Assembly: GCA_016714535.1 (NCBI GenBank)
Contig: JADKDR010000006.1
Coordinates: 264,514-328,513 of the forward strand
Length of the DNA stretch: 64,000 nucleotides
Source of the DNA: Bacteroidota bacterium
GTDB taxonomy: Bacteria > Bacteroidota > Bacteroidia > AKYH767-A > OLB10
Reading direction: 5' to 3'
Numbering within the stretch: position 1 is the first letter of the stretch; the number at the start of each line of letters is the position of its first letter. Both the position numbers and the translations under genes were made by a program. Shown here in pieces: positions 10,003 to 64,000 of the stretch. The notes under the pieces were generated by a model that was given only the letters and a program-made list of their open reading frames with translations, ran no database searches and was not told the DNA's origin.

Positions 10003-11703
10003 TCATTCAACAATTACTTTTTTGGAAATAAGCTGAACGCCATTATAAATGACAATAAAATACATTCCTTTTGCAAGATTATCAAAATGAAGTTCGTTGC
10101 TATTTTTTAAATTTGAATTTTGCGTAGAAAAAATTAATACTCCCATCTCATTATATATGCTTATGTCCGCATTGAATTCGCTATCAAAATTGAATACAAC
10201 TTCAAAGTCGCCATCATTGGGATTGGGAATTATTTCTACTTGTTCATCAATATTATTTAATCCTATTCTTGCAGGAGGCATGGTTATAAATTTGCTTTTG
10301 CTACATCCCACCGAGTCAGTAACTATAACCTTATACGTTTTGCCGGGTAAAAGTCCGGTAGCCGTGGCAGTGGTTTGTGGCGGAATGGTATTCCATAAAA
10401 AAGTGTGAGGCAACACACCACCAGTAACTGTAGCTGAAGCTTCTGAGCTGTTAATAGCTGTTACTGTAACAACCATCAATGGGTTTTCGATTACCGTTGA
10501 AGTATTTACTTTAATACAACCAACTGCATCTGTAATAGTGCAAGTGTAAATGCCGGCACATAATCCCGATAAAGTTGAAGTCGTGGCTCCGGTATTCCAA
10601 AGTAATGTGTATGGTGGCACCCCACCACTTACGGTGAGTTTTATATTTGCATTGCATTTACCACCACAATTTATTTTAGATACTGTTTTTGCAATTGTTA
10701 CACTTGTTGCCGGTTGTGTTATCGTGTAGGTTGCAGCAGTAATGCATCCTTTACTGTCGGTAACGGTAACTAAAAAAGTGCCCGGGTATAGCCCTGTAAT
10801 AGTTGAAGTTTTTTTTCCGTTACTCCACAAATAAGTATAAGGAGGAGAGCCGCCTGAAACGTTTAGCATAATAGAACCATCGTGTGCCGAACGGCATTTT
10901 ATATTTTGTACTGTACCACTGATTGTAATTGGTACTGGAGGAGGCAAAAATATCGTCCTCATTTTCATTACTCCGAGAATATCTGTAACTATAACCGTAT
11001 ACGCACCAGCCGGCAACCCGGCAATCGTTTGTGTAGTGGCACCATTGCTCCATACAAAAGCATAGGGTGGTGTGCCGAAATTGGGCAATGCATTTATACT
11101 ACCATCAGGTGTGCCGGGACATGAAGGCTGATTGTATCCATACAAAACCGTTCCCGTATCAGTCAATTCTGTGTAACAATTTTCGTTGTGACCATACATA
11201 AGCAAATCAACATCGCAAGAGTCGTTGCCAAATAATCCTGTGGTGTCGAGGTTATAATGAAATGTGATATTGCTTTTCATATAAAACTGAAATGGAACCA
11301 AGGTGCCGGGAAAAGGCAAAGGAACAGTATTGAATACCCCCGTCTTTAGGGATTGAATAACCACACCATTTTTTACCAGTAAAAAAATATTTCCTTGTTT
11401 AGAAGTAAAGGGCGAAGGAAAATACACTTCGAATGATGCAGAGTCCGATTCGATTCGCACAGTGTCATTTCGCCAATAATTGTTGTATGTGATTGTATCA
11501 TCTTCTGTTTCGAAACGCATGAGAATTTTTAACAATACACCCATAGTATCCATGCCTGTATTGTAATCATGAACCTTAAATACAACGGGATCGCTTGTTC
11601 CTGCTTTTTGCCGAATGCTTTTTGCTTTGCCCTTCGATGTAGAACCAAAATCGGGAACCCATTCCAATGTTCCATTCATTAAGCTTACGATAATCACGCA
11701 CAT
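10003..11703 (-). CDS. T9SS-secreted surface protein (C-terminal part) with 3-4 SprB-type repeats and a type-A CTD
   Basis: Repeats ...GGSPPYTYLWSNGKKTSTITGLYPGTFLVTVTDSKGC..., and a CTD ending GMYFIVIYNGVQLISKKVIVE. It overlaps the upstream ORF in another frame, so it is probably one gene broken by a frameshift. Confidence 0.7.
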   Translation of the reverse strand: MCVIIVSLMNGTLEWVPDFGSTSKGKAKSIRQKAGTSDPVVFKVHDYNTGMDTMGVLLKILMRFETEDDTITYNNYWRNDTVRIESDSASFEVYFPSPFTSKQGNIFLLVKNGVVIQSLKTGVFNTVPLPFPGTLVPFQFYMKSNITFHYNLDTTGLFGNDSCDVDLLMYGHNENCYTELTDTGTVLYGYNQPSCPGTPDGSINALPNFGTPPYAFVWSNGATTQTIAGLPAGAYTVIVTDILGVMKMRTIFLPPPVPITISGTVQNIKCRSAHDGSIMLNVSGGSPPYTYLWSNGKKTSTITGLYPGTFLVTVTDSKGCITAATYTITQPATSVTIAKTVSKINCGGKCNANIKLTVSGGVPPYTLLWNTGATTSTLSGLCAGIYTCTITDAVGCIKVNTSTVIENPLMVVTVTAINSSEASATVTGGVLPHTFLWNTIPPQTTATATGLLPGKTYKVIVTDSVGCSKSKFITMPPARIGLNNIDEQVEIIPNPNDGDFEVVFNFDSEFNADISIYNEMGVLIFSTQNSNLKNSNELHFDNLAKGMYFIVIYNGVQLISKKVIVE

Positions 11704-12319
11704 CTACCCCACTCCAACTAAATGCTGATGTGGCAGTATTTAAATCGTTATTAATAGACTGAGTTAATCCAAAAGATTGTATCGTTCCTTTCACCGAAGG
11801 CTTTCCTAAAGAATCGACCTTGATACATGTGTAAGATTTTGCCGGAGAATTGCATGCCAGTGCGCATGCCGAATCGAGATACAAAGCGCCAATCAAAGGT
11901 ACTGTTCTTACCAAAGTATCCACTTTAGTTTTATTTCCATAAAAACAATTTAGTGGCAAATCTTTATCAATAGTATCGGTACAAAATGCTTCGAAAGTAG
12001 AGGGCTGCCCGGTTGGTTTTACTTTAAAGTTTTCGCATGCAATTATTGGCTCACGAACAAATGCATGATTATAACTTATAGCGAAAGTTTTGGCAGTGAT
12101 TGGCGAATCGGGCCAAAGAGTAAAACTGTGTTTTATTTGGTAAGTGAGGACCTTGTCACTTTGAGCAGGAGTGATTGTTTTTAAAAGTGTGAGCGGATTT
12201 ATGGCGCATTGGCTTTTTAACAACAATGGCATCAAAACAAAAAACAAACTTACATAGCTAAATATTTTTGAAGGTTTCATTTTGTTATTTTTTATGGAGA
12301 TTAATAATTCAAATGGCAT
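11576..12319 (-). CDS. N-terminal, signal-peptide-bearing part of the same cargo gene, frameshifted relative to 10003..11703
   Basis: MKPSKIFSYVSLFFVLMPLLLKS signal. The ORF ends in a non-native basic tail (…SKKHSAKSRNKRSRCI) that overlaps the start of the downstream ORF in a different frame. Confidence 0.55.
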   Translation of the reverse strand: MPFELLISIKNNKMKPSKIFSYVSLFFVLMPLLLKSQCAINPLTLLKTITPAQSDKVLTYQIKHSFTLWPDSPITAKTFAISYNHAFVREPIIACENFKVKPTGQPSTFEAFCTDTIDKDLPLNCFYGNKTKVDTLVRTVPLIGALYLDSACALACNSPAKSYTCIKVDSLGKPSVKGTIQSFGLTQSINNDLNTATSAFSWSGVDVRDYRKLNEWNIGMGSRFWFYIEGQSKKHSAKSRNKRSRCI

Positions 12320-12466
12320 CTCAAATATAAAAATTTTTTTGATTGTGGTGATGAATTTTAAAAATAAATCAAATATTATTTCGAAGTAAAAAACAATCCC
12401 GCGAGATTAAATTCCCGCGGGATGTTCCGGCATCATCGATTCCGTATTTAGTGTGACACAATCCCC

Positions 12467-15400
12467 TTAATTATGTACACTTAATTTCATTCTGTGTGTT
12501 TGCCCTTGCAACTGTAATTCTAATGTATAAATACCGTTTGAAAGGTGCATTACATTTAGTACAATATCAGTGCCATTATTAAGTAAATTTTTCTGACTAA
12601 GCACTTTATTGCCCAATGCATCAAACAAATTAATATGAACACTTTCATTTGCAAAACCATCGATATGTAGTATAACAAAATTCTTGGCCGGATTTGGATA
12701 TAAGGTCAAACCTATTTCGGTTGATGAAAAGTCTGTATTACCCAACTTCATCTGCGGCATTATGAATGTCTGCATTTGCATGCAACCTGAATTATCCATT
12801 ACCTGTAACTGTAAAATTTGCCCGGGGAACAAACCTGTAGCCAAAGGTCCGGTTTGTGGTGGCATTGTATTCCAGAATATTTGATAAGGAGGCAAACCAC
12901 CAAGCACATTTGCAAATGCCTGACTTGGAGGCATTGGCTGCACATTAATCTGCATTGGTGGCGGACTGCTAATGTTGATTGTACTATTGGCCAAACATCC
13001 CTTAGCATCTGTTACAACTACATTATAAGTTCCTGCTGTGAGGTTTGTTACTGCTGCCGTTGTCATGCCATTGGTCCATAAAAATGTATATGGTTTTGTT
13101 CCTCCTGTTCCAACTATTGATGCACTACCGTTACTACCTCCAAAGCAAGTTACACTTGTCAATGTTGGAACTATTTGCAGTGGAAGAGGTTGTTTTACCT
13201 GATAACTGCTAACTACGCTGCATCCATTAGCATCGCTAACTGTAGCAGTATACGTACCAGCTTTTAGACCAGTTCTTGCTTGATTAGTATTGCCATTATT
13301 CCATTTGTAGAGGTAAGGAAATGTTCCACCCGATGGAATAAGCGTAATGCTGCCGCTAAAATCATTATTGCAATTTAATTTTTTAACATTGGCTGTTACT
13401 GATAACAGAGAAGGCTCAGTTAAATTGACAGTTCCAGTCCATGAAAAACCACTTGCATTGGTTACATTTACCGTAAGGTTGCCGGCAGAAAGATTATTGA
13501 TAATAGCAGTAGTAGCACCGTTGCTCCATATGTAATTTAATGGTAGCATATTGTCTTTTACATTGTCCATTACCATAGCGAACCCATTGAGACTTCCACT
13601 GCACCAAGGTCCGGCCGATACTAATGTCAGTTCGGGATTTGGAATTGCAACCGATGGGCTCACAGGCACTTCAAATACTTTCGTCATGCATCCAGGTGAA
13701 TCCGATACTATAACTGTATACGTTCCGGAAGAAAGATTAGATATATCTTCGGTAGTACTTCCATTCGACCATAAGAACGATGGAAGAAGCATGTCGCCTG
13801 TTAAAGTAAAATCTATACTACCATTGAATTCAGTAAGCGAACTTGCGGGAGTAATGGTTGCAGTACCATCGTAAGAAATAGTAGTGCCGGGTACAGAAAC
13901 ATTCACTGTAGTATAAGGAAATGTATCGGTAGAATTGTATGGCAATAATGCATTGATATGAAAACTAAACTGTACAGGTGCTCCCGGTAAAATTGGAGAA
14001 TAGAAATTTAACGTGCCCGTTGGGAAATCAAAATAGGATGGCAATTTGCTCGATGCCGCATCTACAATAATTCCAGGGTGGGGCGAATTAAATACTAACT
14101 GAGAAATAGGTGAGCACGACTCGTTAATGGCAACCAAACTTCCACTACGGCTGGTCAAACCAAAAGCACTGTTATCATTATTTAAATAAAATTTCATAGT
14201 ACCACCTGTGCATGCCAACTGATAAATAGTATCATCTGAATCGTCAGTAATTTCTATAGTATAACCATCTATCTTTTTACTGCAATAAACTGTAACCACC
14301 ATTTTATTGCCGGGTAAAATACCTCCACCATTGGGTGCGTATACATGTACAGTATCGTTCTTTTTGCCGGGAGGTTTTGTATCCCATTTTACACCGTTCA
14401 CTAAAACCGAATCAATACTTTCTTTCGCAATGATTTCCAAATCACAAATAGTATCTCTTGTGTCATTTTTTAAAACAGTTGACGATTTGCTGCTGCTGAA
14501 TGTACTGCCCGGAGTAGAACCGCTAAACTTTATCTGACGGGTTGCTTTATTTCCCGGATTAATATTTTGTATGCCACAACTAATGTCGGCATTCAGGCTA
14601 TCGGTAGGAGTGTATACATACGTAGTACAAGCTTTATTAAATTTTACAGAAATGGAATAGGGTGCTCCATCGGCAATACACGGAAAAAATACATGCACCT
14701 CATTTTTTTGAGTTGGGCGTGCTGTAATTTTTTTGCCATCGGTTCCATATATGCTGTCCACTTTCTTATCATTTACCCAAACTTCATCTATTGTTACTCC
14801 TGTTGGCGCTTTAATGCGCATATCGCATACATCTGTGCCTGTTGCATTACTATTGGACAAACGTGGAAAACTACTTGGTTCAAAAGTAGGCGATTGTTGC
14901 CCTCCGGTAGTATTTGTTTTGCGAGCCCGCTTTCCCTGTTCTACTGCACCGTTATTCGGCAGACTCCTGTTTGCCATAACATCTGCGTTAAGGCTATCTG
15001 TAGGTGTTATTTTGTAGGTTGTTATTTCGCTTTGTGCTGCTACTGAAACTTTGAAACTATCACCGTCCTTTATGCACTTGAAATATACATGCACTACCTT
15101 TGAATTTGCCGAAGTACCGTTGGGAACTTTAGTGCTACCAACTTTTATACTATCTACTTTTTTATTATTTACAAACACAGAGTCGATTTTTTGAGGACTC
15201 TCTATTCGCAAATCGCAAATGTCGGTGCCTGTAAGATTGGTATAGCCGAGTGAAGGGAATTTACTGGAAGCAAAAGTTGGTGACTGTGAGCCACCAGGCA
15301 CTGTGGTTTTTTCTATTTTTTTATTTACTGTTGTTGCATTGGGATTTACTGCATCATTCACCACCAAATCGGAATGCATGCTATCCGTAGGAATTAAATA

Positions 15401-15871
15401 AAGCAATGATATATTTCCTTCAAACTCTGCTTGAATGGTAATTTGTTTTGTATTGTTTACGCAAGGGTTAAATACTACATGTTGTTTGCCATTTGCTTTT
15501 GCTGTCAAAGCAACAGCTACGCCATTTACTGTTACCGATTTTGCCTTCACAGCACCGGTCCACAATAACCAAAAATCGCAAAGGTCTTCACCTACCATAT
15601 TTACGGTTTGCAGTTTTACTTTTGCCAAAGGACCCGAATCAACGAGCAACTTCCCTCCTTTGATAATTTTGTCGTCATCGGCTTTTGCGCAATGTAGTGT
15701 GGTAAAAAACAAAACAAATACAATTGCGATTTTTTTGAAAACGTGAACTAAATGTTGTTTACGTAAATGGCTTAAAAAATGAAATAAATTGTAGAAGCCT
15801 TGTTCGGTAACACTGGTGATGCTTGCTTTAACCAGCGATTGTTGTGAAACAATGTGTGTAGAATTTTTCAT
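12467..15871 (-). CDS. Large T9SS cargo protein: four tandem ~125-aa repeats of an unrecognised module, then 4-5 SprB-type repeats and a type-A CTD
   Basis: Repeated blocks such as TDICDLRIESPQKIDSVFVNNKKVDSI...YKITPTDSLNADV and TDVCDMRIKAPTGVTIDEVWVNDKKVDSI...YVYTPTDSLNADI. C-terminal SprB repeats (GGTKPYTFLWTNGMTTAAVTNLTAGTYNVVVTDAKGC). CTD ends GIYTLELQLQGQTHRMKLSVHN. The N-terminal ~45 aa before the signal-like segment are unusual, so the true start is uncertain. Confidence 0.75.
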   Translation of the reverse strand: MKNSTHIVSQQSLVKASITSVTEQGFYNLFHFLSHLRKQHLVHVFKKIAIVFVLFFTTLHCAKADDDKIIKGGKLLVDSGPLAKVKLQTVNMVGEDLCDFWLLWTGAVKAKSVTVNGVAVALTAKANGKQHVVFNPCVNNTKQITIQAEFEGNISLLYLIPTDSMHSDLVVNDAVNPNATTVNKKIEKTTVPGGSQSPTFASSKFPSLGYTNLTGTDICDLRIESPQKIDSVFVNNKKVDSIKVGSTKVPNGTSANSKVVHVYFKCIKDGDSFKVSVAAQSEITTYKITPTDSLNADVMANRSLPNNGAVEQGKRARKTNTTGGQQSPTFEPSSFPRLSNSNATGTDVCDMRIKAPTGVTIDEVWVNDKKVDSIYGTDGKKITARPTQKNEVHVFFPCIADGAPYSISVKFNKACTTYVYTPTDSLNADISCGIQNINPGNKATRQIKFSGSTPGSTFSSSKSSTVLKNDTRDTICDLEIIAKESIDSVLVNGVKWDTKPPGKKNDTVHVYAPNGGGILPGNKMVVTVYCSKKIDGYTIEITDDSDDTIYQLACTGGTMKFYLNNDNSAFGLTSRSGSLVAINESCSPISQLVFNSPHPGIIVDAASSKLPSYFDFPTGTLNFYSPILPGAPVQFSFHINALLPYNSTDTFPYTTVNVSVPGTTISYDGTATITPASSLTEFNGSIDFTLTGDMLLPSFLWSNGSTTEDISNLSSGTYTVIVSDSPGCMTKVFEVPVSPSVAIPNPELTLVSAGPWCSGSLNGFAMVMDNVKDNMLPLNYIWSNGATTAIINNLSAGNLTVNVTNASGFSWTGTVNLTEPSLLSVTANVKKLNCNNDFSGSITLIPSGGTFPYLYKWNNGNTNQARTGLKAGTYTATVSDANGCSVVSSYQVKQPLPLQIVPTLTSVTCFGGSNGSASIVGTGGTKPYTFLWTNGMTTAAVTNLTAGTYNVVVTDAKGCLANSTINISSPPPMQINVQPMPPSQAFANVLGGLPPYQIFWNTMPPQTGPLATGLFPGQILQLQVMDNSGCMQMQTFIMPQMKLGNTDFSSTEIGLTLYPNPAKNFVILHIDGFANESVHINLFDALGNKVLSQKNLLNNGTDIVLNVMHLSNGIYTLELQLQGQTHRMKLSVHN

Positions 15872-21895: not shown

Positions 21896-22918
21896 ATGAA
21901 AACAATTTATTTAATAATAGCTCTTTTTGTTTGCAATAAAGTTGTTGCCCAAAATAAAAATAGCGTGTGGGTGTTTGGCGATAGTGCTGGTATAGATTTT
22001 AGTAATGTAAATGTACCAATGCCTATTGGGACTTCAATAGATGGCAGAGGTAGTTGTGTTTCAATTTCAGATAGCATTGGCAATTTAGCTTTGTATGCAG
22101 CAACTTTTTCAAATGGTGGCTATAGCACTAAAATTTTTAATGGAAATCACCAACAAATACAAGGTGGTGATTCTATTGCAGGTTCTGCTTGGTATAACGA
22201 ATTAGTATTAATACCAAACCCTAATAACTACAGTCAATATTATATTTTCAGTGTTGGGGTGGATGGTTTTATAAATGGCTTATATTATACCCTTATAGAT
22301 ATTTCTTTGAATAATGGTATTGGTGGTGTATTAAGTAGAAATGTACAATTGGATACCGTAAATAATGGCGATCGTATTAGCGCAGTAAAACATGGCAATG
22401 GCCGCGATTGGTGGATAATAAGTAAATATGCCGATGTTAGCTTAACTAAACATAACCGCTTTTACATTCATAAAGTTGATACAGGTGGTATTACATACAT
22501 AGCTACCCAAGATTTTTATAACGCAACAGATGCTGGTTTTCAAAAAATTATTTGGCATCCGAGCGGTAGTAAATTTATGAATTTAAATATTGCTGGTTAT
22601 TTGGAGGAACTTAACTTTGATAGATGTAGTGGCTTTATTGCAGTATACAGAACTATGTATACTGAAATACCTGCACCTTATTGTTGCCGCTATTTTTGGG
22701 AAGGAGCATATTCAAAAAGTGGTAATGTTTTTTATGCAAGCACTACTGGTATTAATAGCCAATTTTCGCAAGGGTATTTGTTGCAATATAATTTATTGGA
22801 TAGCAACCCAACCTTAACAGTAGATACATTGGATACGTTTGATACACCCATAGGTACTGGAGTGCTGCGCCTTGCACCGGATAATAAAATTTATTTTTCG
22901 CGTGCTTATGAGTCCTAA
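21896..22918 (+). CDS. Secreted hypothetical protein; may continue into ORF 22872..23168 after a frameshift
   Basis: Signal peptide MKTIYLIIALFVCNKVVAQ. The overlapping downstream 98-aa ORF lies in another frame and is followed by a strong terminator at 23162..23181. Confidence 0.55.
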   Translation: MKTIYLIIALFVCNKVVAQNKNSVWVFGDSAGIDFSNVNVPMPIGTSIDGRGSCVSISDSIGNLALYAATFSNGGYSTKIFNGNHQQIQGGDSIAGSAWYNELVLIPNPNNYSQYYIFSVGVDGFINGLYYTLIDISLNNGIGGVLSRNVQLDTVNNGDRISAVKHGNGRDWWIISKYADVSLTKHNRFYIHKVDTGGITYIATQDFYNATDAGFQKIIWHPSGSKFMNLNIAGYLEELNFDRCSGFIAVYRTMYTEIPAPYCCRYFWEGAYSKSGNVFYASTTGINSQFSQGYLLQYNLLDSNPTLTVDTLDTFDTPIGTGVLRLAPDNKIYFSRAYES

Positions 22919-23161
22919 TACTTGGAGTTACCCTTATCAAGATAGTATGCGCAACTACATAAACGAAAACCTAAGTGTAATAAATGAGCCTGATAGCCTT
23001 GGTGCAAAATGCGATTATCAACCTTTTAGTTTTTACCTCGGTGGCAAGCGTACATATTATGGTTTGCCTAATAATCCAAATTATGAGTTGGGGCCGTTGT
23101 TGGGGAGTGCTTGTGATACGCTTTCGGCCTCAATGCAATACACCCCTAAATCCGCCATCTC

Positions 23162-23181
23162 CGCGTAGCTTTAGCTACGCG
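23162..23181 (+). terminator. Palindromic hairpin CGCGTAGCT-tt-AGCTACGCG followed by a T-rich tract
   Basis: Seen directly, immediately after the stop of ORF 22872..23168. Confidence 0.5.
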
Positions 23182-23374
23182 TTATATCCTTTTAGATTTT
23201 ATCTAATATTATCTAATTGTGCATTTTAATTGAGATTAATATTCAACCGAAGGAATGACTATTTATCACTAACCCTGATTGGAGCGGAAATCCTTTTTTT
23301 CAATTATCGAATACCTTAAAAAAGATTGCAGTGCAAAGCAGGACTAAACGTATATTAGCACCGTTACGTTCGCT

Positions 23375-53542: not shown

Positions 53543-54265
53543 TTAATTTTTAATAATTCTGGTTTTATAAACTACAGCACCATCATTCACCTCTATCATA
53601 TAAATGCCTGCAGTTAGATTTTGCAGCGAGAGCATCGTAAGATTTTCTCCTTCACTAATGTCAATGTTAGATTGGCTAACAGGCTTTCCAAGCATATCAA
53701 ATACGCGAATGGTGCCGGTAGTCTGCATTTCGCTAGTGAATAACAAGGCAACGTCATTTTCTGATGGATTAGGGAAAACTTGCAAATCACCCTCATCACT
53801 ATATTTATTAAACGCTTCATTTAAAGGCATTGATTTTACAAAGTTTGTACTGCTTACGTCCACACGCAGTTTGTAGCAAACAGTATTATTGAACGCTCCA
53901 TTATATCCATTTACACGTACCTTATAGGTAGCAGCTGTAGTAGCATTACGGATGATAGTTTCATTGGCCGTGCCGTTGTTCTGTGATTTAGCCAACAGCG
54001 CATTGCTGCTGCTATACAGACGTAAATCGTAATCTGCAGGCAAATTCTGAAGCGTAACTTTTAATTTTGTATTGGGTGAAACAGTAGCAAATGTTAACCA
54101 ATCTAAATCGCCAGACACGCCAATCAAGGCAAATATATCAATGCTTACAGGTATTGCTTTGGCAGTACTTGATGAATTGTTGGTTTCATATACATCGGTG
54201 CAAGCTGCACCTACCGGTACCAATGCTACGTTTAAATTTGTTAAGCTACCATTAGTGAGAACCAC
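53543..54265 (-). CDS. C-terminal part of a mosaic T9SS cargo gene: CarboxypepD_reg-like domain plus type-A CTD
   Basis: …VVLTNGSLTNLNVALVPVG… and a CTD ending GIYMIEVNDGAVVYKTRIIKN. The upstream region 54266..55239 encodes LVIVD-like and SBBP-like propeller repeats, but it is broken by an in-frame TGA and two 1-bp indels. Confidence 0.6.
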   Translation of the reverse strand: MVLTNGSLTNLNVALVPVGAACTDVYETNNSSSTAKAIPVSIDIFALIGVSGDLDWLTFATVSPNTKLKVTLQNLPADYDLRLYSSSNALLAKSQNNGTANETIIRNATTAATYKVRVNGYNGAFNNTVCYKLRVDVSSTNFVKSMPLNEAFNKYSDEGDLQVFPNPSENDVALLFTSEMQTTGTIRVFDMLGKPVSQSNIDISEGENLTMLSLQNLTAGIYMIEVNDGAVVYKTRIIKN

Positions 54266-55239
54266 ATCTGAAGTAACTTTAGTGGTATAACCCGTTTTAC
54301 TAACGGTTACTGTATATGTTCCGGAAGTTACCGTTCCTGATTTATACTCACCATTAACTGCCGAAGTTTCGTTTAAGGTGGCTGGTCCGGTGATGCTAAC
54401 AGTAGCACCTGCTATGATTAATCCCGTTTGCTGATCGGTAATAACACCTTCGATATGGCAGGCCCGTGTATACGTAGGTGTTAATACGAATAAACCATTT
54501 TCAATATCACTAACGATTACGTTACCCGATGCAAAATAAGGGTATACACCCCATGCGCCATTAAATCCATTGCCGGCTAATGAAGGTGATGTATCGTACC
54601 ATCCCGTTAATACTAAATTGCCCGGGCGGGTTACATCAACTATTGTAAATCCATCGCGATAATATGAGCATACTGCATACTCATCTCTAATATATGTGTT
54701 GTGAATGATTGATCCTGAAGCCGGATTCTGAGATTGTATTTTGTCAAGTAATTGAACGTTGTTGGGGTCCGAAACATTATATGCAGCAAGGTATGAGTTG
54801 CTTACTTCGTCAGTTGTAAAAACTACATTCTGTGACCCATTGAGCCAGGTGTTATGACAAAAAGCATTGGGTGTAGTTTGTTTGTTTGCAGCACACTGTA
54901 ACTACCCTCGCTAAGGGATCCGCCATTGGTTCGTGTCCACAAGATTGCACCATCAGCATCTAGCCGCACTAAAAAGAAATCTGCAAATCCGTTACCATAG
55001 CTTTTGGTATAACCGGCTATAATAAACCCTCTATCAGCTGTTGCATTTATTCAATAACCTTCATCGTCATATTCCCCACCAATGGTTTTAGTAAATAGGG
55101 TGTCACCATTGATGTCAAATTTACAAACGTATACATCTTTAAATGCATTGTCTACAATAGAGCTGCCACATGCTGCAAATTTCCCATCGGCCAATGCTAC
55201 TTCAGAATTGCCGGTACAATTAAATCCATTATTTATCAT
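54266..55239 (-). pseudogene. Upstream, disrupted part of the same cargo gene (propeller repeats, Met start at 55239)
   Basis: MINNGFNCTGNSEVALADGKFAACGSS…EGY-TGA-INATADRGFIIAGYTKSYGNGFADFFLVRLDADGAILW…, then …NTYIRDEYAVCSYYRDGFTIVDVTRPGNLVLTGWYDTSPSLAGNGFNGAWGVYPYFASGNVIVSDIENGLFVL. The frames shift at runs GGGG (54768) and AAAAA (54831). Confidence 0.5.
54564..55050. repeat. Copy 2 of the ~487-bp near-identical segment (see 42054..42539)
   Basis: Direct comparison. Confidence 0.8.
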
Positions 55240-55642
55240 GATGTTGAAATTGGAATTTTGCGCATTGGTAACATAATAGCTAGCACAAAATACAATTAGG
55301 CAGGATAGTAAATACTTAATTGGCCAACAACTGAATTTAAGTTGCCAGTGTGTGTGTAAGCGAAAATGGTTTGCGATGCAATACTGCTGATACTCTCAAC
55401 TTCGCATACAGTAACCGGTACATTGCCGGATTTGGAGTTTTGATTTTTCATACGTTTGTCTTTTAATTTGTAAATACTGGTAAAAACTCGGAATACAATG
55501 TGCCCATAGGCAAATGATTTTTTTGCAAATACAAACTAACGTGATTTATTTTTACAAAAGCAAAATTAATTTGTAGAAGCCATCTGCTTTTGCACCAGAG
55601 TCAAATAACTATTTTAATTTTTTCAATAACATCCGCATTTTG

Positions 55643-55709: not shown

Positions 55710-58700
55710 CTACTTCTTAATAAACCTTACAGTTTCAGTCATACCATTCAACTGAACGTTTACTAGATACATTCCGGCTGCAAACTGAGTCATGTTATAC
55801 AAACGTGTGTTATTACCTGCAAAGGCTGCTTCCTCTAAATTAAATACCACTCGGCCAATGTTATCATACACAGTTACGCGTACTGTACCATCTTCAGTCG
55901 CTTCAAAGTTCATATTCACCATTCCTTCTCCTGGATTAGGATAAATAGTTACCATACCGGTAGTGCTTACGATGTCGCTGGTAATCTTTGGAGGTGCAGG
56001 GCAAGTTAACATACTTGAAGTGCTACCTTGTATACCACCGGCCCATGCTCTCAATATATTCCATACCGCTGTACTACACTGCGCAGATGTATAAGGACTT
56101 GAACATGCACCAAGTTTCTTATTAGCTTCGTTTAATACTTGCGTTACAGTCATACCAGCAAATGGCGCTGTACCATATATTAGGTCACCTAATGTTACTG
56201 TTGGCACAGGCGCAAAGTTCGGATCGTATGCATCAAATACCACACTTAGTTTCAAGCTCACTACCAATGCTGCAAACGAACTGTTAAACGAGCCACTTGT
56301 TGGGTTGTTCAGGTTAGAGCTTAACTGTAATGCACCACCTGTTGCAGGTTGACCGGTTAAGAAATTGCGCACTGCCGTAGAGCTGCTTAAGGTAAGAGTC
56401 TTGCTTCCACCGCAACCGCCACCTACAACCAAACTAGCCGGGAATGCGGCCGGGAAATGGTTAGTCAGGTAAGTACCTATGTTATTGCCTGCGGCCGGTG
56501 TTGTCCAACCTACTGCATTTCCATATGTACCAGGATTCGGGAACTCAGTATGGAATGGTGTACCATTGCTACACAAGAAAGGTGGCTGAGTAATCGTTAC
56601 TGTTGCTTGGGTTAAGCATCCACTTGCATCCGTTACCGTTACCTGGAATGTTCCTGCGGTTAATCCGATTACATCTTGAGTGGTCCTTACTGGTATGGTA
56701 TTCCACTGATACGTGTAAGTACCGCCTCCACCGCTTACGCTAATGTATGCTGCTCCATTGTTACCTCCATAGTTGGTTACATTGCTTGTGCTATCAACAA
56801 CTACAACAATTGACGTTGGTGCTGTTATTACACAACTGCTGCTGTTACTGCAACCGTTTGCATCTGTTACCGTTACGGTATACGTACCCGGAGGCAAGTT
56901 GCTAATGCTACTGCTTGTAGCAAAAGTATTCCACACATAAGTGTATGGCGCACTTCCACCTGCTGCGGCTACACTTGATGCACCGTTGCTTCCATTATTG
57001 CAAGTAGTATTAGTACAGCTTTGGCTCAATACGATAGCGTTAGGTTGCGTTAACACTACACATAAGGTGATGGTACATCCATTGGCATCTGTAACCGTTA
57101 CGGTATGTGGTCCTGCTGGCAGGCCAGTGCGGTCTTCGGTAGTAGCTCCGCCTGTCCATATGTAAGTATATGGGGCCGAACCTCCGGTTACGGTAATGTT
57201 AATACTACCATTGCTGCCACCGTTGCAAGCTGGATTTACATGCGTTTCGGTAATGTTAAGTCCGCTTGCCGGAGCTGTAACTTCATAGCTTGCCGTGGCA
57301 GTACATCCGTTCGCGTCTGTTACGGTCACCGTATATATTCCACCCATCAAGCCTGTTGCTGTTTGAGTAGTTTGACCGTTACTCCACATATAACCGTATG
57401 GCATAGTTCCGCCACTTACCGTAGCCGTTGCAGTACCATTGCTATTTCCATTACAACTTGCATTGGTACCACTAGCAGTTACAGCTAATGCTGCAGGCTG
57501 CGTTAAGGTAATACTTACTGTTTGTGTACATGTTCCATTACTTACTGTTACTGTATAGATACCTACTCCAATACCCATCAAGTCTTCAGTTGTTGCTCCG
57601 GTACTCCATGTATACGTGTAAGTGCCTAGTGGATTGGTGGTCAGGTTAATGCTACCATCCAAACCTCCATTACAACGGATGTTATATCCGCCTGCATAGG
57701 TTGGGCTATTCAAACTAGCGGTAAAGCCACCGTTATCTGTAACCTTCACACATACGCTTATTACACATCCGTTGGCATCAGTTACAGTTACAAAGTTATT
57801 ACCTGGACATAAGCCGGTAGCAGTTTGGCCAGTCTGACCGCTGCTCCACAAGTAACTGTATGGCATTGTTCCTCCCGTAACATTTACCGTTCCTTCGCCA
57901 TTGCACAATCCGCAAGTTGAGTTAACGCTCGAAGTGCTTATTGTATCCAGTACTGCCGGTTCTATTATCTCTCCTGATGCGGTTACGGTACATCCATTAG
58001 CATCGGTTACCGTTACGGTATACATTCCTGCTCCGGTATTTACAATATAGCTTAAGCTTGCTCCTGTGTTCCATGCATAACTGTATGGCGCTGTTCCTCC
58101 GGTCACTGCTATGCTTATGCTGCCATCCATCATTCCATTACAACTTACATTTACTGCTGTAGCTGTAGCTTCTAATAAGGCTGGCTGAGTTATCGTTCCG
58201 CTTAAGCTTGCTGTACATCCACTGCTGTCAGTTACAGTTACAGCATAGATTCCTGCACCGGCCGTAATCGAAGTAGTAGTCATACTATTACTCCAAGCAT
58301 AGGTGTAAGGAGCACTGCCACCATTCAGATTAGTGATTGATAACGTTCCATTTCCTCCGTTGCATAATGGATTAACTGCACTCAAGGTAAACTGTATGGA
58401 TGCCGGTTGACCAACAAACGCTGTACAAGAAGTAGTACATCCTTGATTATCGGTAATTAAAACAGTATAAACACCTGCTGTTAAGCCTGTATTAATTGCG
58501 TTGGTTCCTCCATTACTCCATTGGTATACATACGGTGGTGTGCCTCCAAATACATTAACTGTTGCAGTTCCTATTGCCTGTCCGCAAGCAGTAGGCGTGC
58601 AAACTGTGTTGCAATTAAGTGCTGCACTTTGTGACATGATAATGGCAACCTGAACGTTACAACCCATACTATCAGTTACGGTAACATACACTGCCCCTGC

Positions 58701-61700
58701 ACTCAAGCCGCTTGCAGTCTGAGTAGTTTGGCCATTGCTCCATAAGTAAATATATGCATTGCCAATGGTGAATGGCGTACCTCCTACCGGAGTTATGGTT
58801 GCTGTTCCATTGTTTCCACCCTGACACACAGGACCTCCTGTAGTAAAGCTATAAATCAATGGGCTTGGCTCAGTTACTATGACTGTACAAACACTGCTAC
58901 AACCATCACCATCAAATACTGTTACTTGATATGTTCCTGCTCCAAGTCCTGTAGCCGTTAGCGTAGTTTGTGCAGGAGCTGTGTTCCAAATTACATTATA
59001 TACTCCATTTCCGCCTGCGGGTACTACCGTAGCTTGCCCATCATGATAACCACTGCAACTTACATTTTGTGTTACACTGGCTGTACATGTAACTGGTGTT
59101 GGAGCATTAATAACTGCCGTTGCAGTTATTGGTCCGCAACCATTTGCATCATTTATAGTAACCGTATACGTTCCTGCTGCAAGACCGGTGATGGCACTCG
59201 TAGTTGCTCCATTGCTCCAGCTATAGGTATAAGGTGGTGTTCCACCTCCTACTACCGCTACTGCGGTGCCGGTTGGATTGTTACAGGTTACATTTGTATT
59301 GCTGGTGCCTACACTTAATGCCATTGGCTCAACAATAACGATGCTGCAAGTGCTGCTACATCCATTAGCATCTGTCACAGTCACAGTATATGTGCCTGAT
59401 GCTAATCCACTAATGCTGCCAGTAGATGCGCTGTTGCTCCAACTGTAGGTATATGGAGCGGTACCGCCTATTGCATTGGCAGTTGCCGTACCGGTACTTC
59501 CACCGTTACAACTTACTCCTGTACTGCTAATTGCACATTGTACTGCTGCAGGTTGATTTACTACAAAGCAATACGTTACACTACAACCCAAACTATCTGT
59601 TATGGTTACATAATAAACGCCTGCAGGTACCGTAGCCGTATTGGTAGTATTGCCTGGATCCTGACTCCAGCTATAAGTATATGGGCCTGTTCCGCCTGTT
59701 GGGCTCACAAGCAATACACTTGTACCACCGTTACATAAAATAGGTGTCTGCGTTGGGTTTACTACAATACTTGTAGAGTTTAGTATCGTATAGCTCATGG
59801 TGGTAGTACAACCTTTGTAATCCGTTACGGTTACAGTATATGTACCGGCTGTTAAACCGGTAGCGGTTGCACCCATCTGACCATTGCTCCATAGGTAGTT
59901 ATAAGGGGCGGTTCCTCCGCTTATTGCTGCAGTTGCGCTTCCTGTATTGGCTCCGTTACAAGCAATGTCAACCTGACTTGGCGCAATAACCAAAACTGTT
60001 GGTTCGGTTATGGTGACACTTGTTTGGGTAGTACATGCATTTGCATCTGTTACAGTTACCGTGTAAGTACCTGCTGCCAAACCAGTTGCTGATGCATTAG
60101 ATTGACCATTACTCCAACTATAGGTATAGCCCGGTGTTCCTCCAATTACATTTACTGTGGCGCTACCGGTACTTGCACCATTGCAATTTACATTCGTTTG
60201 TGAAGTAGTCGTAATCATTGCACTTGGCTCATCTATTTCAATATCAATCGAAGCTGTACAGCCTGCGTCATCTGTTACCGTTACGGTATATGTTCCTGCT
60301 GCAAGGCCGGTGGCCGTAGCATCAGTTTGTCCATTGCTCCATAAATATGCATAAGGGGATGGACCAACACTTGCTACCACGGTTGCCGTGCCGCTTGTGC
60401 CTCCATTACATAATACATTTGTTCCACTAATATTTAATACCAGACTACCCGGTGCTGTTATGGTTAAACTGGCTGTAGCTGTGCATCCATTAGCGTCTGT
60501 TACTGTTACGATATATCCGCCAGGCACAAGTCCTGTGGCGGTTGCACCTGTTTGTCCGTCACTCCAAAGGTATGTGTAAGCCGGAGTGCCTCCTGCTCCC
60601 TGTGCCGTAGCACTTGCTGTGCCACCACCTGTACAGGTGATTGGTACAACAGTAGGGATACTTGCAGTTACAGGGGTTAGTGGTTCTGTAATTTCTATAC
60701 TTGCCGTATATATACATCCTTGTGCATCAGTAACGGTTACTGTATAGGTCCCAGCCGTTAAGCCCGTGGCGGTCATCGTGCCCTGGCCTGGTACCGTATT
60801 CCAACTGATGCTGTAAGGTGCTGTACCTCCGGTAATGCCGCTAATAGTTGCGCTGCCGTTATTACCTCCATTACATAATACATTTACTCCTGTTAATGGA
60901 TTGGCTGTTATCGTGCTGCCCTGATTAATGATAATTCCTGTAAGTTGTGCGGTACATCCATTGGCATCCGTTACTGTTACACTGTAGGTACCTGCTGGCA
61001 AGTTAACAGCGGTGGCTGTTGTTTGACCATCACTCCACAAATAGCTGTAAGGCATGGTGCCTCCGCTTGCTGTTACTGTGGCGGTGCCTATTCCCGTTTG
61101 ACACGTAGGTTGGGTTGTGGTAAACGCTGCCATTATTCCTGTAGGCTGAGTCACAACCACACTTGCGGTCTTGGTGCATCCATTGGCATCAGTTATGGTT
61201 ACGGTATAAGTACCTGCACTTAATCCTGTAGCTGTTGCTGTAGTTTGGGCAACACTGGTATTCCACAAGTAAGTATATGGGCCGGTGCCTCCTGTTACTC
61301 CTGAAACAGTAGCTGTTCCATCGTTACCTCCATTACAACTTACCGCTGTGATGGTCAATGGATCGCAGGTTATGGCTGCCGGCTGACTTAACGTCACACT
61401 GCAACTGGTTGTACAGTTGTTCTTGTCTTTTACGATCACCGTATACGTGCCTGCTCCTACATTGTTTACTATCGCGGTAGTGGCTACCGGTACGGTATTC
61501 CAGGTATATGTGTAACCTGGCGTGCCGCCTGTTACAGTTACGCCTATCTTGCCAAGACCTCCATTACATGTTATCGTTTGCAATACGTTTGCACTGCAAC
61601 TTAATACTGCTGGCTGTGTTAACGTTACACTCTGTGTCTTGGTACATCCGTTGGCATCAGTTATGGTTACGGTATAGGTTCCTGCCGCTAGGCCAGTAGC

Positions 61701-63299
61701 TGAGGCGGTGGTTTGACCGCTGCTCCATGAATAGCTATATGGTGTTACACCTCCCGAAACGCTTGCCGTTGCCTGTCCGTTTGCCGCTCCATTACATTTT
61801 GGATTCTTTGGTGTGATGCTTACAATCATTGCATTGGCCTGGGTTATTACAACCATCGCATTGCTTATACATCCGCGCTTATCCTTTATGGTCACATTAT
61901 ACATGCCTGCCATTACTCCCGTAATATCCTGTGTCGTGGCTCCTGTGCTCCATAAGTAGGTATAGCCCGGGGTGCCTCCTGTTACGCTTAAGTCGATGGC
62001 GCCATTGCTGCCACCATTACAACTTACATTGGTTACAGTATACAAAGCCAACAAGGCACTTGGTTGGGTAATTACTACGCTCAATGTCTTGGTACATCCT
62101 CCTGCATCTGTTACTGTTACGGTATACGTTCCTGCTGCAAGGCCTATTACAAACTTCGTTGTTTTTCCATTGCTCCATAAGTAACTATATGGTGCTGTTC
62201 CACCTGTTGGTACTACCGTTATGGTTCCGTTGCTACCGCCATGGCAGCTTACATTGGTCTTCTTGCTCGTTACATTCAAGGACGGTGGCGCTGTTAAAGT
62301 CACGCTCGCGGTTGCCGTACATCCGTTGGCATCCGTTATGGTAACTGTATACGTTCCTACGCCTAAGCCGGTTGCGATGGCTGTGGTCTTTACTGGTACC
62401 GTGTTCCAGCTATAGCTGTATGGTGCTGCACCTCCTATGGCGATGGCCGTTGCCGATCCGCTGTTAGCTCCGTTACATGCCGGATTGGTACCGTTAACAA
62501 ACACAAATAATTGTGATGGCTGCGTTACCGTGGCCGTGCCCACTTTGGTACAGCCGTTGGCATCCGTTATGGTTACGGTATACGTTCCTGCTGTTAAATT
62601 GTTGATCGTTTGTGTTAATGCGCCATTGCTCCATACAAATCCATAAGGTGGGGTACCGCCTATGGGTTGTGCTGTTACACTGCCATTGCTGCCACCAAAG
62701 CAGCTTACATTGGTTACACTTGCATTGCAAATGCAACTTAAGGCGCTTGGCTCTATGATGGTGGCACTTGTACTCTGTGTACATCCACTTCCATCTGTTA
62801 CCGTTACTGTATAAATACCGGCTGCCAGATTGATGATGGTGGCCGTACTAGCTCCATTGCTCCAACTATAGCTATATGCTCCACTACCTCCGGTAGCTGT
62901 GGCGGTTATACTGCCATTGCCTCCTCCATTACAACTCACATTGTTGGTTGCAAGGCTGAGGGCTATAGCGGCTGACTGTCCTACGGTGTAGGTCGTATTG
63001 GTGCTTACCGTACATCCATTAGCATCAGTAACAGTTACCGTATAGGTTCCCGCTGATAAACCACTGATGTCTTCGGTTGTGGCTCCGGTGCTCCATAATA
63101 CTGTATAGCCCGCTGTGCCACCTGATATGGTCAGGTTAACAGCTCCGGTGTTGCCTCCGTTACATCCTACATTGGTTACTACGCCACTTAATGCCAGTGG
63201 TGCCGATGGTTGGCTAATTGTTACCGAACCGATTGTCATGCATCCCATGGCATCGGTAATGGTTAACGTCCATGTTCCTGCCGTTAGGCCGGTTTGCAT
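55710..63299 (-). CDS. Giant SprB-repeat cell-surface protein (2,529 aa in this frame) with a non-repeat C-terminal region and a type-A CTD
   Basis: About 30 tandem SprB-type repeats (…CNGGSNG…GGTAPYSYLWSNGQTT…GLAAGTYTVTVTDANGCT…), a ~380-aa non-repeat region, and a CTD ending GMYLVNVQLNGMTETVRFIKK. The apparent Met at 63299 is internal. Confidence 0.85.
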   Translation of the reverse strand: MQTGLTAGTWTLTITDAMGCMTIGSVTISQPSAPLALSGVVTNVGCNGGNTGAVNLTISGGTAGYTVLWSTGATTEDISGLSAGTYTVTVTDANGCTVSTNTTYTVGQSAAIALSLATNNVSCNGGGNGSITATATGGSGAYSYSWSNGASTATIINLAAGIYTVTVTDGSGCTQSTSATIIEPSALSCICNASVTNVSCFGGSNGSVTAQPIGGTPPYGFVWSNGALTQTINNLTAGTYTVTITDANGCTKVGTATVTQPSQLFVFVNGTNPACNGANSGSATAIAIGGAAPYSYSWNTVPVKTTAIATGLGVGTYTVTITDANGCTATASVTLTAPPSLNVTSKKTNVSCHGGSNGTITVVPTGGTAPYSYLWSNGKTTKFVIGLAAGTYTVTVTDAGGCTKTLSVVITQPSALLALYTVTNVSCNGGSNGAIDLSVTGGTPGYTYLWSTGATTQDITGVMAGMYNVTIKDKRGCISNAMVVITQANAMIVSITPKNPKCNGAANGQATASVSGGVTPYSYSWSSGQTTASATGLAAGTYTVTITDANGCTKTQSVTLTQPAVLSCSANVLQTITCNGGLGKIGVTVTGGTPGYTYTWNTVPVATTAIVNNVGAGTYTVIVKDKNNCTTSCSVTLSQPAAITCDPLTITAVSCNGGNDGTATVSGVTGGTGPYTYLWNTSVAQTTATATGLSAGTYTVTITDANGCTKTASVVVTQPTGIMAAFTTTQPTCQTGIGTATVTASGGTMPYSYLWSDGQTTATAVNLPAGTYSVTVTDANGCTAQLTGIIINQGSTITANPLTGVNVLCNGGNNGSATISGITGGTAPYSISWNTVPGQGTMTATGLTAGTYTVTVTDAQGCIYTASIEITEPLTPVTASIPTVVPITCTGGGTASATAQGAGGTPAYTYLWSDGQTGATATGLVPGGYIVTVTDANGCTATASLTITAPGSLVLNISGTNVLCNGGTSGTATVVASVGPSPYAYLWSNGQTDATATGLAAGTYTVTVTDDAGCTASIDIEIDEPSAMITTTSQTNVNCNGASTGSATVNVIGGTPGYTYSWSNGQSNASATGLAAGTYTVTVTDANACTTQTSVTITEPTVLVIAPSQVDIACNGANTGSATAAISGGTAPYNYLWSNGQMGATATGLTAGTYTVTVTDYKGCTTTMSYTILNSTSIVVNPTQTPILCNGGTSVLLVSPTGGTGPYTYSWSQDPGNTTNTATVPAGVYYVTITDSLGCSVTYCFVVNQPAAVQCAISSTGVSCNGGSTGTATANAIGGTAPYTYSWSNSASTGSISGLASGTYTVTVTDANGCSSTCSIVIVEPMALSVGTSNTNVTCNNPTGTAVAVVGGGTPPYTYSWSNGATTSAITGLAAGTYTVTINDANGCGPITATAVINAPTPVTCTASVTQNVSCSGYHDGQATVVPAGGNGVYNVIWNTAPAQTTLTATGLGAGTYQVTVFDGDGCSSVCTVIVTEPSPLIYSFTTGGPVCQGGNNGTATITPVGGTPFTIGNAYIYLWSNGQTTQTASGLSAGAVYVTVTDSMGCNVQVAIIMSQSAALNCNTVCTPTACGQAIGTATVNVFGGTPPYVYQWSNGGTNAINTGLTAGVYTVLITDNQGCTTSCTAFVGQPASIQFTLSAVNPLCNGGNGTLSITNLNGGSAPYTYAWSNSMTTTSITAGAGIYAVTVTDSSGCTASLSGTITQPALLEATATAVNVSCNGMMDGSISIAVTGGTAPYSYAWNTGASLSYIVNTGAGMYTVTVTDANGCTVTASGEIIEPAVLDTISTSSVNSTCGLCNGEGTVNVTGGTMPYSYLWSSGQTGQTATGLCPGNNFVTVTDANGCVISVCVKVTDNGGFTASLNSPTYAGGYNIRCNGGLDGSINLTTNPLGTYTYTWSTGATTEDLMGIGVGIYTVTVSNGTCTQTVSITLTQPAALAVTASGTNASCNGNSNGTATATVSGGTMPYGYMWSNGQTTQTATGLMGGIYTVTVTDANGCTATASYEVTAPASGLNITETHVNPACNGGSNGSINITVTGGSAPYTYIWTGGATTEDRTGLPAGPHTVTVTDANGCTITLCVVLTQPNAIVLSQSCTNTTCNNGSNGASSVAAAGGSAPYTYVWNTFATSSSISNLPPGTYTVTVTDANGCSNSSSCVITAPTSIVVVVDSTSNVTNYGGNNGAAYISVSGGGGTYTYQWNTIPVRTTQDVIGLTAGTFQVTVTDASGCLTQATVTITQPPFLCSNGTPFHTEFPNPGTYGNAVGWTTPAAGNNIGTYLTNHFPAAFPASLVVGGGCGGSKTLTLSSSTAVRNFLTGQPATGGALQLSSNLNNPTSGSFNSSFAALVVSLKLSVVFDAYDPNFAPVPTVTLGDLIYGTAPFAGMTVTQVLNEANKKLGACSSPYTSAQCSTAVWNILRAWAGGIQGSTSSMLTCPAPPKITSDIVSTTGMVTIYPNPGEGMVNMNFEATEDGTVRVTVYDNIGRVVFNLEEAAFAGNNTRLYNMTQFAAGMYLVNVQLNGMTETVRFIKK

Positions 63300-64000
63300 T
63301 GGCGGTAGTCTGTGCTGGAATCGTATTCCACTGGTAGGTATATGGGGCCGTGCCTCCTACTACATTATTTAAACATGCCTTGCCATCATTGCCACCATAA
63401 CATTTGATATTATCGCAAACAACTAAGGTAAAGGTTATGGCAGGTGGCTCTACTATATTATACGTGCAACTCATGGTACATCCATTGGCATCAGTTACCG
63501 TTACTGTATACGCACCTGCCGCTAGGCCTCCTATTGTTTGGGTAGTAGCACCCGTGCTCCAACTGTATGTATAGGGGGCGGTGCCTCCGGTTATGTTGCT
63601 CGTTATCATTCCATCGCTGCCTCCGTTGCACATCGTATTGCTTACGCTGCCACCACAAATAAGTGGTGCCGGAGCTGTGATGGTAAATACAACTGCCAGA
63701 TTACAGCCGTTGCTATCCGTAATTAATACCGTGTGAGTACCTGAGCTTATGCCTGTAAACAAGCCACTGCTTTGAACTGCTCCACCATCAAGGCTATAGT
63801 CGTAGCCTGCTGCGTGTATGCCTGCACCGCTCCATGGCGTGCCGCCAAAGGCTGTGATATTTATGCTACCTGTTTGGCCAGCACATAATGGTTGGGTAAT
63901 CGTGAAATTCTTATCTAACATGTTAGGCTCGAATATGTAGAAGGTCATGATCGTATCGCATCCTAAACTATCTGTTACTGTAAGTGTATATGTGCCTGCA
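63214..64000 (-). CDS. Upstream continuation of the same giant SprB-like gene, offset by a +1 frameshift; it runs off the window end
   Basis: SprB repeats continue (…GGTAPYTYSWSTGATTQTIGGLAAGAYTVTVTDANGCT…). The frame reads through 63948 to position 64000 with no stop. The two frames meet at a TTT run near 63283-63285. Confidence 0.8.
   Translation of the reverse strand, partial: AGTYTLTVTDSLGCDTIMTFYIFEPNMLDKNFTITQPLCAGQTGSINITAFGGTPWSGAGIHAAGYDYSLDGGAVQSSGLFTGISSGTHTVLITDSNGCNLAVVFTITAPAPLICGGSVSNTMCNGGSDGMITSNITGGTAPYTYSWSTGATTQTIGGLAAGAYTVTVTDANGCTMSCTYNIVEPPAITFTLVVCDNIKCYGGNDGKACLNNVVGGTAPYTYQWNTIPAQTTANANRPNGRNMDVNHYRCHGMHDNRFGNN

Follow-up and report, generated by a model that had tools for sequence, protein, structure and literature searches.

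Interrupted type IX secretion system cargo genes in an uncultured activated-sludge Bacteroidota: structural remnants, single-base lesions and the case for gene decay

Introduction

Genes for large surface proteins are often pseudogenes in other bacteria, as exemplified by the MUB genes of lactobacilli (PMC3017865), and among large clusters of frameshifted genes, many code for secreted or surface proteins (PMC3711429). Here we analyze a 64,000-nucleotide stretch of contig JADKDR010000006.1 (positions 264,514 to 328,513; assembly GCA_016714535.1), hereafter called the window, from an uncultured activated-sludge Bacteroidota. It holds a cluster of genes for type IX secretion system (T9SS) cargo proteins, several of which are interrupted. 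We lean towards reading these interruptions as ordinary gene decay in a recombination-prone cargo cluster that bears insertion sequences (IS) and is under relaxed constraint. This kind of phenomenon is already known, and the present instance is new but unremarkable.

The MUB genes are one close parallel. There, as in the window, frameshifts and truncations at the N- or C-terminus have hit genes for long exported proteins rich in repeats, while core genes remain intact. The fragments concatenate into proteins that match full-length homologues, and the same question arises of whether error, pseudogene formation or slippage is the cause (PMC3017865). The window differs in that its proteins carry the C-terminal domain (CTD) of the T9SS rather than a sortase/LPXTG signal, in that six of ten cargo genes within 64 kb are affected, and in that the sequence is a population metagenome-assembled genome (MAG) rather than an isolate.

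IS-mediated truncation offers a second parallel. An intact IS1380-family element bounds the 5' side of one broken gene (gene C), and 10 nt separate an IS1634-family element from an orphan cargo fragment. The flanks do not look like those of a gene that was continuous before a simple insertion; IS-associated deletion or recombination would fit them. Unlike in the usual case, no target-site duplication is recognizable at either the IS1380 or the IS1634 element, the IS1634 element is degenerate, and at most the IS1380 element is still active.

Two further systems have to be considered. Residual indels in Nanopore R9.4.1 consensus sequences (PMC9262707) resemble our case in that 1-nt indels split gene calls, the presumed assembly pipeline is of this type, and sister long-read MAGs have similar breaks in the same gene family. 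In contrast to those errors, the indels in the window are not in long homopolymers, two of them are insertions, and 24 kb of non-cargo coding sequence with twice as many long homopolymers has been spared; nor can such errors give rise to nonsense codons and structural scars. The contingency loci of Haemophilus and Neisseria and the silent-cassette systems (pilS/pilE, vls) share with the window their surface or secreted targets and the presence of partial copies near full-length paralogues. However, the window has no simple-sequence tracts at the lesions, no architecture of expression site and donors and no sequence shared between fragments and intact genes, and several of its lesions are irreversible.

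Results and discussion

The cargo genes of the window were recognized by matches to the Pfam family Por_Secre_tail, and most of them also match SprB. PF18962 is found at the C-terminus of five of the six broken genes (A, B, C, D and E) and of four intact cargo genes, with E-values of 1e-11 to 1e-15. The sixth broken gene, F, gave no PF18962 match, whereas its homologues are ~85 residues longer. Signal-like N-termini, judged by eye only, are present in A (MKPSKIFSYVSLFFVLMPLLLKSQ), B and F; the N-terminus of E lies outside the window.

Breakage is concentrated in this class of genes. Six of the ten cargo genes (A to F) are broken, as is the transposase gene of the IS1634-family element, and none of the 18 non-cargo genes is (Fisher p = 5.6e-4). 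A first-pass annotation, made from the sequence letters alone, had listed five interrupted cargo genes and the transposase and had described the housekeeping genes as whole. All six interruptions can be seen in the sequence, on the minus strand, and gene F adds one more, so that the concentration had been slightly understated. The 18 non-cargo genes are full-length single open reading frames (ORFs), with full-length profile coverage wherever the family is recognizable (for example, RadA 1-448 of 454, GH29 6-344 of 345, MutS domains I-III and Rhomboid 7-141 of 143). Since cargo genes are longer and make up 56% of coding bases, we also ran a per-base test, which gave p = 0.03 for the six first hits and p = 0.009 for the eight point lesions.

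The lesions form two classes, structural scars, which make up roughly half of the damage, and point lesions. The point lesions comprise three nonsense codons (in B, C and D) and about five short indels, of which C has two and A, E and F have one each. The first-pass annotation had counted three nonsense codons and at least five frameshifts. The nonsense codons stand, but the frameshift attributed to D, which is copied in C, is a fusion junction, and that of the IS1634 transposase accompanies a deletion.

Gene D (53546-55320, minus strand) is a chimera. Its N-terminal part consists of DUF5122 beta-propeller repeats and is in a different frame from the downstream part. A choice-of-anchor B homologue, P0090 (73-77% identical), matches D only from residue 224 to the end, and the DUF5122 part is joined out of frame at a (CAAA)3 sequence (54870-54889) to choice-of-anchor B residues 224-670. 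The apparent frameshift is therefore a fusion, made by an out-of-frame deletion, between two cargo genes that are unrelated to each other. A TGA also interrupts D in frame at 55051-55053, a position at which Ser stands in the repeat consensus. At 55318-55320, an ATT occupies the expected place of the start codon of the signal peptide (M)KYLLSCLIVFCASYYVTNAQ, which begins (M)KYLLSCLIVF; D would have a signal peptide only if this ATT has replaced an ATG.

Gene C (40560-42539, minus strand) is a composite. Positions 42048-42539 are a 99% copy of the fusion junction of D (54557-55050), a segment of ~0.49 kb (492 nt in C). Two substitutions and two 1-nt indels separate the copies, the indels being T5 to T4 (~42308) and C4 to C3 (~42256) in C. 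On the 3' side of the duplicate follow the last SprB repeats and the CTD of another gene, where a TAG (41193-41195) falls on a conserved, invariant Tyr of the SprB repeat (GVSP*SFLWSTG). The 5' end abuts a perfect IS1380 inverted repeat, and because its 5' side is bounded in this way, gene C has neither a start codon nor a signal peptide. Gene C is a remnant put together from three sources, and its product, if any were made, would not be exportable by the T9SS for want of a signal peptide. The neighboring IS1380-family element (42534-43978, plus strand) has perfect 19-nt terminal inverted repeats (42534-42552 and 43960-43978) and an intact transposase of 438 aa that covers positions 1-416 of the 419 of NF033539 (E = 3e-77).

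One detail touches both genes. The TGA of D (55051-55053) directly adjoins the edge of the segment that is duplicated in C, and in C the IS1380 inverted repeat ends at this edge (42539/42540). A hexanucleotide at the boundary, ATAAAT, recurs inverted at the other end of IS1380, and the inverted repeat therefore reads 19 nt. The adjacency of the TGA and the boundary may be a coincidence, or it may be a clue to how the copy arose.

Gene F (21896-23165, plus strand), a cargo-family protein gene that had been overlooked, has a frame change of -2 or +1 at 22913-22918 (GAG TCC TAA). The best 150 matches in a library of 1.8 billion proteins all cross the lesion site in a single stretch. Homologues of F are ~500 aa long and have a CTD, whereas F is without the last ~85 residues, and no trace of a CTD is present in 23166-23469, the ~300 nt between F and the next gene. 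In the public annotation the tail of gene F appears as a protein of 86 aa, P0339 (~22908-23168), with no pseudogene flag in its name. According to two earlier papers, the CTD is the export signal of T9SS cargo (PMC8545088, PMC5445135). For want of it, neither the product of F nor the N-terminal pieces made from A, B and E could therefore be exported by the T9SS.

Both ends of the IS1634-family element (29564-31546, minus strand) still carry perfect 16-nt inverted repeats (29564-29579 and 31531-31546). The profile NF033559 matches both pieces of its transposase (E = 9e-40 and 2e-25), covering positions 33-206 and 275-482 only. A frame change at 30419-30470 comes with an internal deletion: residues 313-356 of the Segatella copri protein WP_006848056.1, including the motif VVMDAG, have no counterpart, and 47 nt stand in their place. 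The transposase is dead, with ~30 residues (~90 nt) including the catalytic-Asp region around VVMDAG deleted. The element had no DNA-level match among plasmids; a protein-level search did match.

Two orphan fragments complete this class. An 89-nt fragment beside the IS1634 element (31556-31644, minus strand) matches the 3' terminus of gene C (40547-40635) at 97% identity. The other is the C-terminus of a LuxR-type response regulator with half of a GerE helix-turn-helix (35332-35523, minus strand). Within it, 35332-35443 is 87% identical to 36189-36300, and the fragment sits between gene B and an intact regulator gene. In a domain search of several intergenic open segments, this half GerE motif was the only hit.

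The scars in C, D, F and the IS1634 element are gene remnants. Base-calling cannot produce them, and this conclusion would be wrong only if the assembly is chimeric. The earlier description of the locus as a graveyard is apt for these four, which show structural scars and are accompanied by the two orphan fragments. A, B and E, otherwise intact, have single-base lesions only.

Could the broken genes instead be a switching system, in which frameshifts are reversible or fragments serve as donors for gene conversion? We regard phase variation or a silent-cassette reservoir as very unlikely. Surface and secreted proteins are the usual targets of switching (PMC3711429), and the 0.49-kb, 99% identical segment of C and D represents a recent duplication or conversion between cargo loci. 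In our own reading of the sequence, moreover, the C/D junction lies on (CAAA)3, and one further unit would restore the frame. However, D with a repaired junction would still have its TGA and would still be without the first 223 residues of the choice-of-anchor B domain. The nonsense codons, the loss of the CTD and the missing signal peptide are likewise irreversible. Three tetranucleotide units are also far below the counts of known contingency loci. Applying a simple-sequence criterion from the literature (a tract within 50 nt; PMC3711429), we found no run of ≥7 nt and no tandem repeat detected by Tandem Repeats Finder within 50 nt of any frameshift. The longest run there is 5 nt, and (CAAA)3 is below the threshold of that program. 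The window has no inverted repeats of ≥60 nt by which an invertible element might be bordered, and homologues have no frameshifts at the same sites.

The reservoir variant fares no better. Repeats of >85% identity in the window join only C with D, C with the orphan cargo fragment, the LuxR gene with its orphan, and two upstream regions. No near-identical segment joins a fragment to an intact cargo gene. The first-pass annotation had proposed both on/off switching and a reservoir of adhesins. The absence of tracts, of invertible elements and of same-site frameshifts argues against the former, and there is no positive evidence for the latter, since near-identical segments connect pseudogenes and orphans, never intact cargo.

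The remaining three broken genes each carry one lesion. Gene A (10003-12280, minus strand) encodes a T9SS cargo protein with a putative signal peptide, a unique N-terminal domain, SprB repeats and a CTD. Its frame changes at 11677-11686 (AAG CTT A ATG), at about 11680, in a run of at most two. The homologue P0210, 81% identical, is uninterrupted over the lesion (DYKRLMNGTLEW), and homologues P0210 to P0214 (39-81% identical) cover both pieces. The lesion in A is accordingly one extra base, or two missing ones.

Gene B (31790-35152, minus strand) is a T9SS cargo gene of 1121 codons with an in-frame TGA at 34451-34453, inside the conserved block MLSP-L-SGWPSYNFRFTPG. Among 35 homologues, the residue at this site is Leu in 24, Phe in 2, Ser in 4 and Val in 5. 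The original codon had been taken to be TCA or TGG, but this predominance of Leu favors TTA as the most likely ancestral codon and TTA to TGA as the simplest change. Apart from the stop, B is collinear with its homologues, the best of which is 77% identical. The ORF downstream of the stop (31787-34231) is identical to GenBank MBK8847002.1 (814 aa), the sole part of B called in the public annotation, where it bears the name 'T9SS type A sorting domain-containing protein'; the retrieved name has no pseudogene flag.

Gene E (55710-64000, minus strand) is a giant SprB-repeat T9SS cargo gene of >2790 codons that runs off the window. It has one additional nucleotide at ~63292-63297 (GCA-A-ACC), near 63294, in a linker of the SprB repeats (TTANA|TGLTAGTW). 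The frameshift lies at a run of two to three A, and the 8.3 kb of E hold only two runs of 5 nt. Positions 56000-64000 have a G+C content of 45-48%, compared with 34-40% in the remaining window. The G+C content and the scarcity of homopolymers could reflect either the amino-acid composition of the repeats or a foreign origin.

An observation that applies to all three nonsense codons (34452, 41193 and 55052) is that they are changes to G on the coding strand: TTA or TCA to TGA, TAY to TAG, and TCA to TGA, respectively. Their local contexts have no motif in common, and with three events only this bias may be meaningless.

Might full-length proteins nevertheless be made, through readthrough or reassignment of the stops and programmed slippage at the frameshifts? 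Programmed frameshifts are frequent in transposases, and the frame change in F coincides with a stop (UCC UAA U) in a way that superficially resembles prfB. Nonetheless, we give recoding hardly any credence. In the window, ordinary genes end in TAA 18 times, TGA 5 times and TAG 4 times. The stop replaces Leu in B and Tyr in C, and neither is a selenocysteine or pyrrolysine context. Homologues of A, B and F are continuous at the lesion sites, so the lesions are not conserved. The frame change in the IS1634 transposase accompanies the loss of catalytic residues, and there are no A-rich slippery runs at the lesion sites. As a separate matter, reassignment of the genetic code is ruled out by the ordinary use of all three stop codons.

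How, then, would the cluster have come to its present state? The cargo genes are long, paralogous, repeat-rich and individually dispensable, and could for these reasons break without the cell being purged. In the decay that we favor, breakage would come from point mutation, from IS activity and from recombination, both illegitimate and homologous (between paralogues); switching, recoding and cassettes play no part in it. D arose by an out-of-frame deletion that fused two cargo genes. The 0.49-kb piece with the junction was copied beside an IS1380, where its union with the 3' portion of a SprB-repeat gene gave C. F lost its CTD and the IS1634 transposase part of its catalytic core, with the two orphan fragments left behind. 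The genes that were already dead then gathered nonsense mutations and 1-nt indels. The lesions in A (+1), B (TTA to TGA) and E (+1) may represent the first step of the same process, either as very recent inactivations or as loss-of-function alleles that dominate the sampled population. That these single-base lesions are real as well seems to us somewhat likely.

Three lines of evidence carry this reading of the point lesions. First, the three genes that are dead for structural reasons carry point lesions at ~8 times the density of the remaining seven cargo genes, with five of the eight lesions in 17% of cargo bases (p = 0.005). This supports decay because neutral decay predicts such a density difference, whereas a polishing artefact does not. 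Second, the indels avoid homopolymers. The genes of the window contain 107 homopolymers of ≥6 nt (71 in non-cargo and 36 in cargo genes), all of them in frame, and no frameshift lies in a run of that length; the runs at the lesions of A, E and F are no longer than 3-4 nt. A homopolymer-weighted error model would place all five simple indels in cargo genes with a probability of 0.004-0.013. Third, few substitutions create stops, and the three nonsense substitutions would therefore imply dozens of substitution errors confined to cargo genes. The first-pass annotation had judged the nonsense codons not to be of the homopolymer type, which is fair, and the same can be said of the frameshifts in A, E and F.

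The principal competing explanation accepts that the remnants C and D, the loss of the CTD in F and the IS1634 deletion are real but holds that the single-base lesions in A, B, E and F and the indels in C are consensus errors. Strain-variable, paralogous cargo genes would have defeated short-read polishing, and A, B and E would be functional in the cell. We consider this possible, though less probable than decay. The source appears to be a Nanopore population MAG polished with Illumina reads, as judged from the accession block and the closest relatives; the attribution has no direct record behind it, which tells against the artefact explanation. These relatives are JADJAG/JADJMG 'tig' contigs from a study of Nanopore MAGs from Danish activated sludge (for example, AalW_18-Q3-R10-53_BATAC.339), the presumed source read data being PRJNA629478. 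That study assembled with CANU and polished with Racon, with medaka in two rounds and with one Illumina-based Racon round (PMC8012365), and indels in Nanopore consensus sequences are known to fragment gene calls (PMC9262707).

Both indels of C lie inside the 99% duplicate, where short reads map ambiguously. A further hint of strain or paralogue ambiguity comes from the B family: in the short-read MAG JBDTRM01, the gene orthologous to B lies in two parts on contigs L011 and L017, both of which end within the gene at about residues 286-303. In contrast, the lesions of A, B and F are in unique, non-repeated sequence. The first-pass annotation had offered consensus errors confined to repetitive DNA as one of its explanations; the confinement does not hold, and the idea survives in the form of error in a long-read population MAG. 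Residual nanopore errors are mostly deletions in longer runs. The insertions of +1 in A and E, in runs of 1-3 nt, are unlike these, and by the criterion of an indel (usually a deletion) in a run typically of ≥5 nt only the T5 to T4 and C4 to C3 changes of C fit, and loosely. Nonsense substitutions are improbable products of an indel-dominated error process, and neither the in-frame state of all 107 long homopolymers nor the clustering of point lesions in structurally dead genes is what such a process would be expected to leave. A methylation motif as the cause was considered separately and set aside. Short palindromes such as AAGCTT, CCGG, GANTC, CATG and CTAG occur at or close to several of the sites, but 4-mer palindromes are too frequent for this to be meaningful, and there are no breaks where these motifs occur elsewhere in the window; no formal test was made.

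Several points weigh against decay as the full explanation. The dead-gene enrichment weakens to p = 0.07 once the two indels inside the 99% duplicate are excluded. A, B and E have one lesion each and are otherwise collinear with their homologues, and a consensus error would look identical. Of the seven cargo genes that are structurally intact, three would have been inactivated by a single hit, a rate that is high for a free-living bacterium, and since B belongs to a conserved unit of kinase, regulator and cargo, its loss is not obviously neutral. The authors of the presumed CANU/Racon/medaka pipeline describe its MAGs as chimeric population bins, with a mean of 2% polymorphic sites and with platform errors (PMC8012365). 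No conspecific sequence was found: exact-protein look-ups of the window proteins and of the source ORF matched none (that for P0001 gave a 77% relative only), a metagenome scan yielded one 1.1-kb contig, 90% identical, that does not reach the stop of B, and a genome scan found relatives of ≤81% identity only. Finally, frameshifts affect the orthologue or paralogue of B at three of the four other long-read MAG loci, as against one of 11 short-read or hybrid loci (Fisher p = 0.033), the sole broken one among the latter being UBA6661.

The breaks in these long-read relatives are 1-nt indels in runs of 2-5 nt, whereas the housekeeping genes beside them are full length; they occur in L014 (JADJMG010000009.1), L016 (twice; 10001-12635 of JADJMG010000031.1) and L018 (9971-14753 of CAWFDA010000013.1). 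L014 is a 15-kb contig with mostly fragmentary T9SS cargo genes. By Pfam, the genes flanking the broken cargo in L016 (EF-P, S6, FtsX, HAD, UPRT, SDR and others) are full length, and the notion that the long-read relatives are simply poorly polished was rejected on that ground. Breakage of cargo only thus recurs in other long-read MAGs, which points either to a lineage-wide tendency or to a systematic weakness of consensus calling in strain-variable, paralogous genes.

A third account of this recurrence is that the broken cargo genes, here and in sister lineages, are real high-frequency loss-of-function alleles maintained by recurrent selection against display, for example of phage or predator receptors, with the fragments available for repair or mosaics. 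We think this improbable. If it were true, long-read MAGs would reveal that T9SS cargo is polymorphic (on or off) in the population, a variation which is collapsed or fragmented in short-read assemblies.

The genomic setting of B deserves separate mention. B is the third member of a unit (31790-39977) with an intact sensor kinase (HK2; Y_Y_Y/HisKA_3) and a LuxR-type response regulator (36171-39977, minus strand). The order and orientation of the three genes are kept in at least nine related MAGs while the flanks vary (loci including L002, L003, L006-L008, L010, L012 and L022). This suggests that cargo B is specifically regulated by the adjoining two-component system. The description of the broken genes as redundant adhesins, given as the ground for relaxed selection in the first-pass annotation, is too loose for a gene in such a unit.

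What do these findings mean for work on similar genomes? Their practical value is mostly as a caution. The pieces of B and F are annotated as ordinary proteins, and counts of the cargo repertoire from such MAGs consequently mix functional genes, remnants and possible artefacts. A bias of breakage towards cargo, whatever its cause, affects inferences on secretomes, adhesins and pseudogene load from long-read metagenomes. If the single-base lesions are real, the lineage sheds secreted proteins unusually fast for a free-living bacterium.

The genes of the window lie mostly on the minus strand, and its G+C content ranges from 34 to 48%. The four intact T9SS cargo genes encode a protein of 1134 aa with SprB repeats and a CTD (12467-15871, minus strand), one of 941 aa with a beta-helix and a CTD (19025-21850, plus strand), one of ~1160 aa (44199-47750, minus strand) and one of 466 aa (48332-49732, minus strand). 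The non-cargo set consists of mutS (partial, at the window edge), an RNA methyltransferase, GH3, GH29, an AAA ATPase, TPR proteins, a rhomboid protease, a DnaJ-domain protein, a methyltransferase, radA, three two-component pairs and one hypothetical protein.

Two minor features of the intergenic regions were also noted. An 87-nt segment occurs in two copies of 92% identity (47720-47806 and 49763-49849), directly upstream of the intact cargo genes at 44199-47750 and 48332-49732. A pair of LytTR regulator and histidine kinase lies next to them, and the segment may be a shared promoter or operator of those two cargo genes. Between the AAA ATPase gene and gene A, positions 9012-10002 have no ORF with a family match, and a perfect tandem repeat, (AGCAACA)x4.7, lies there at 9469-9501.

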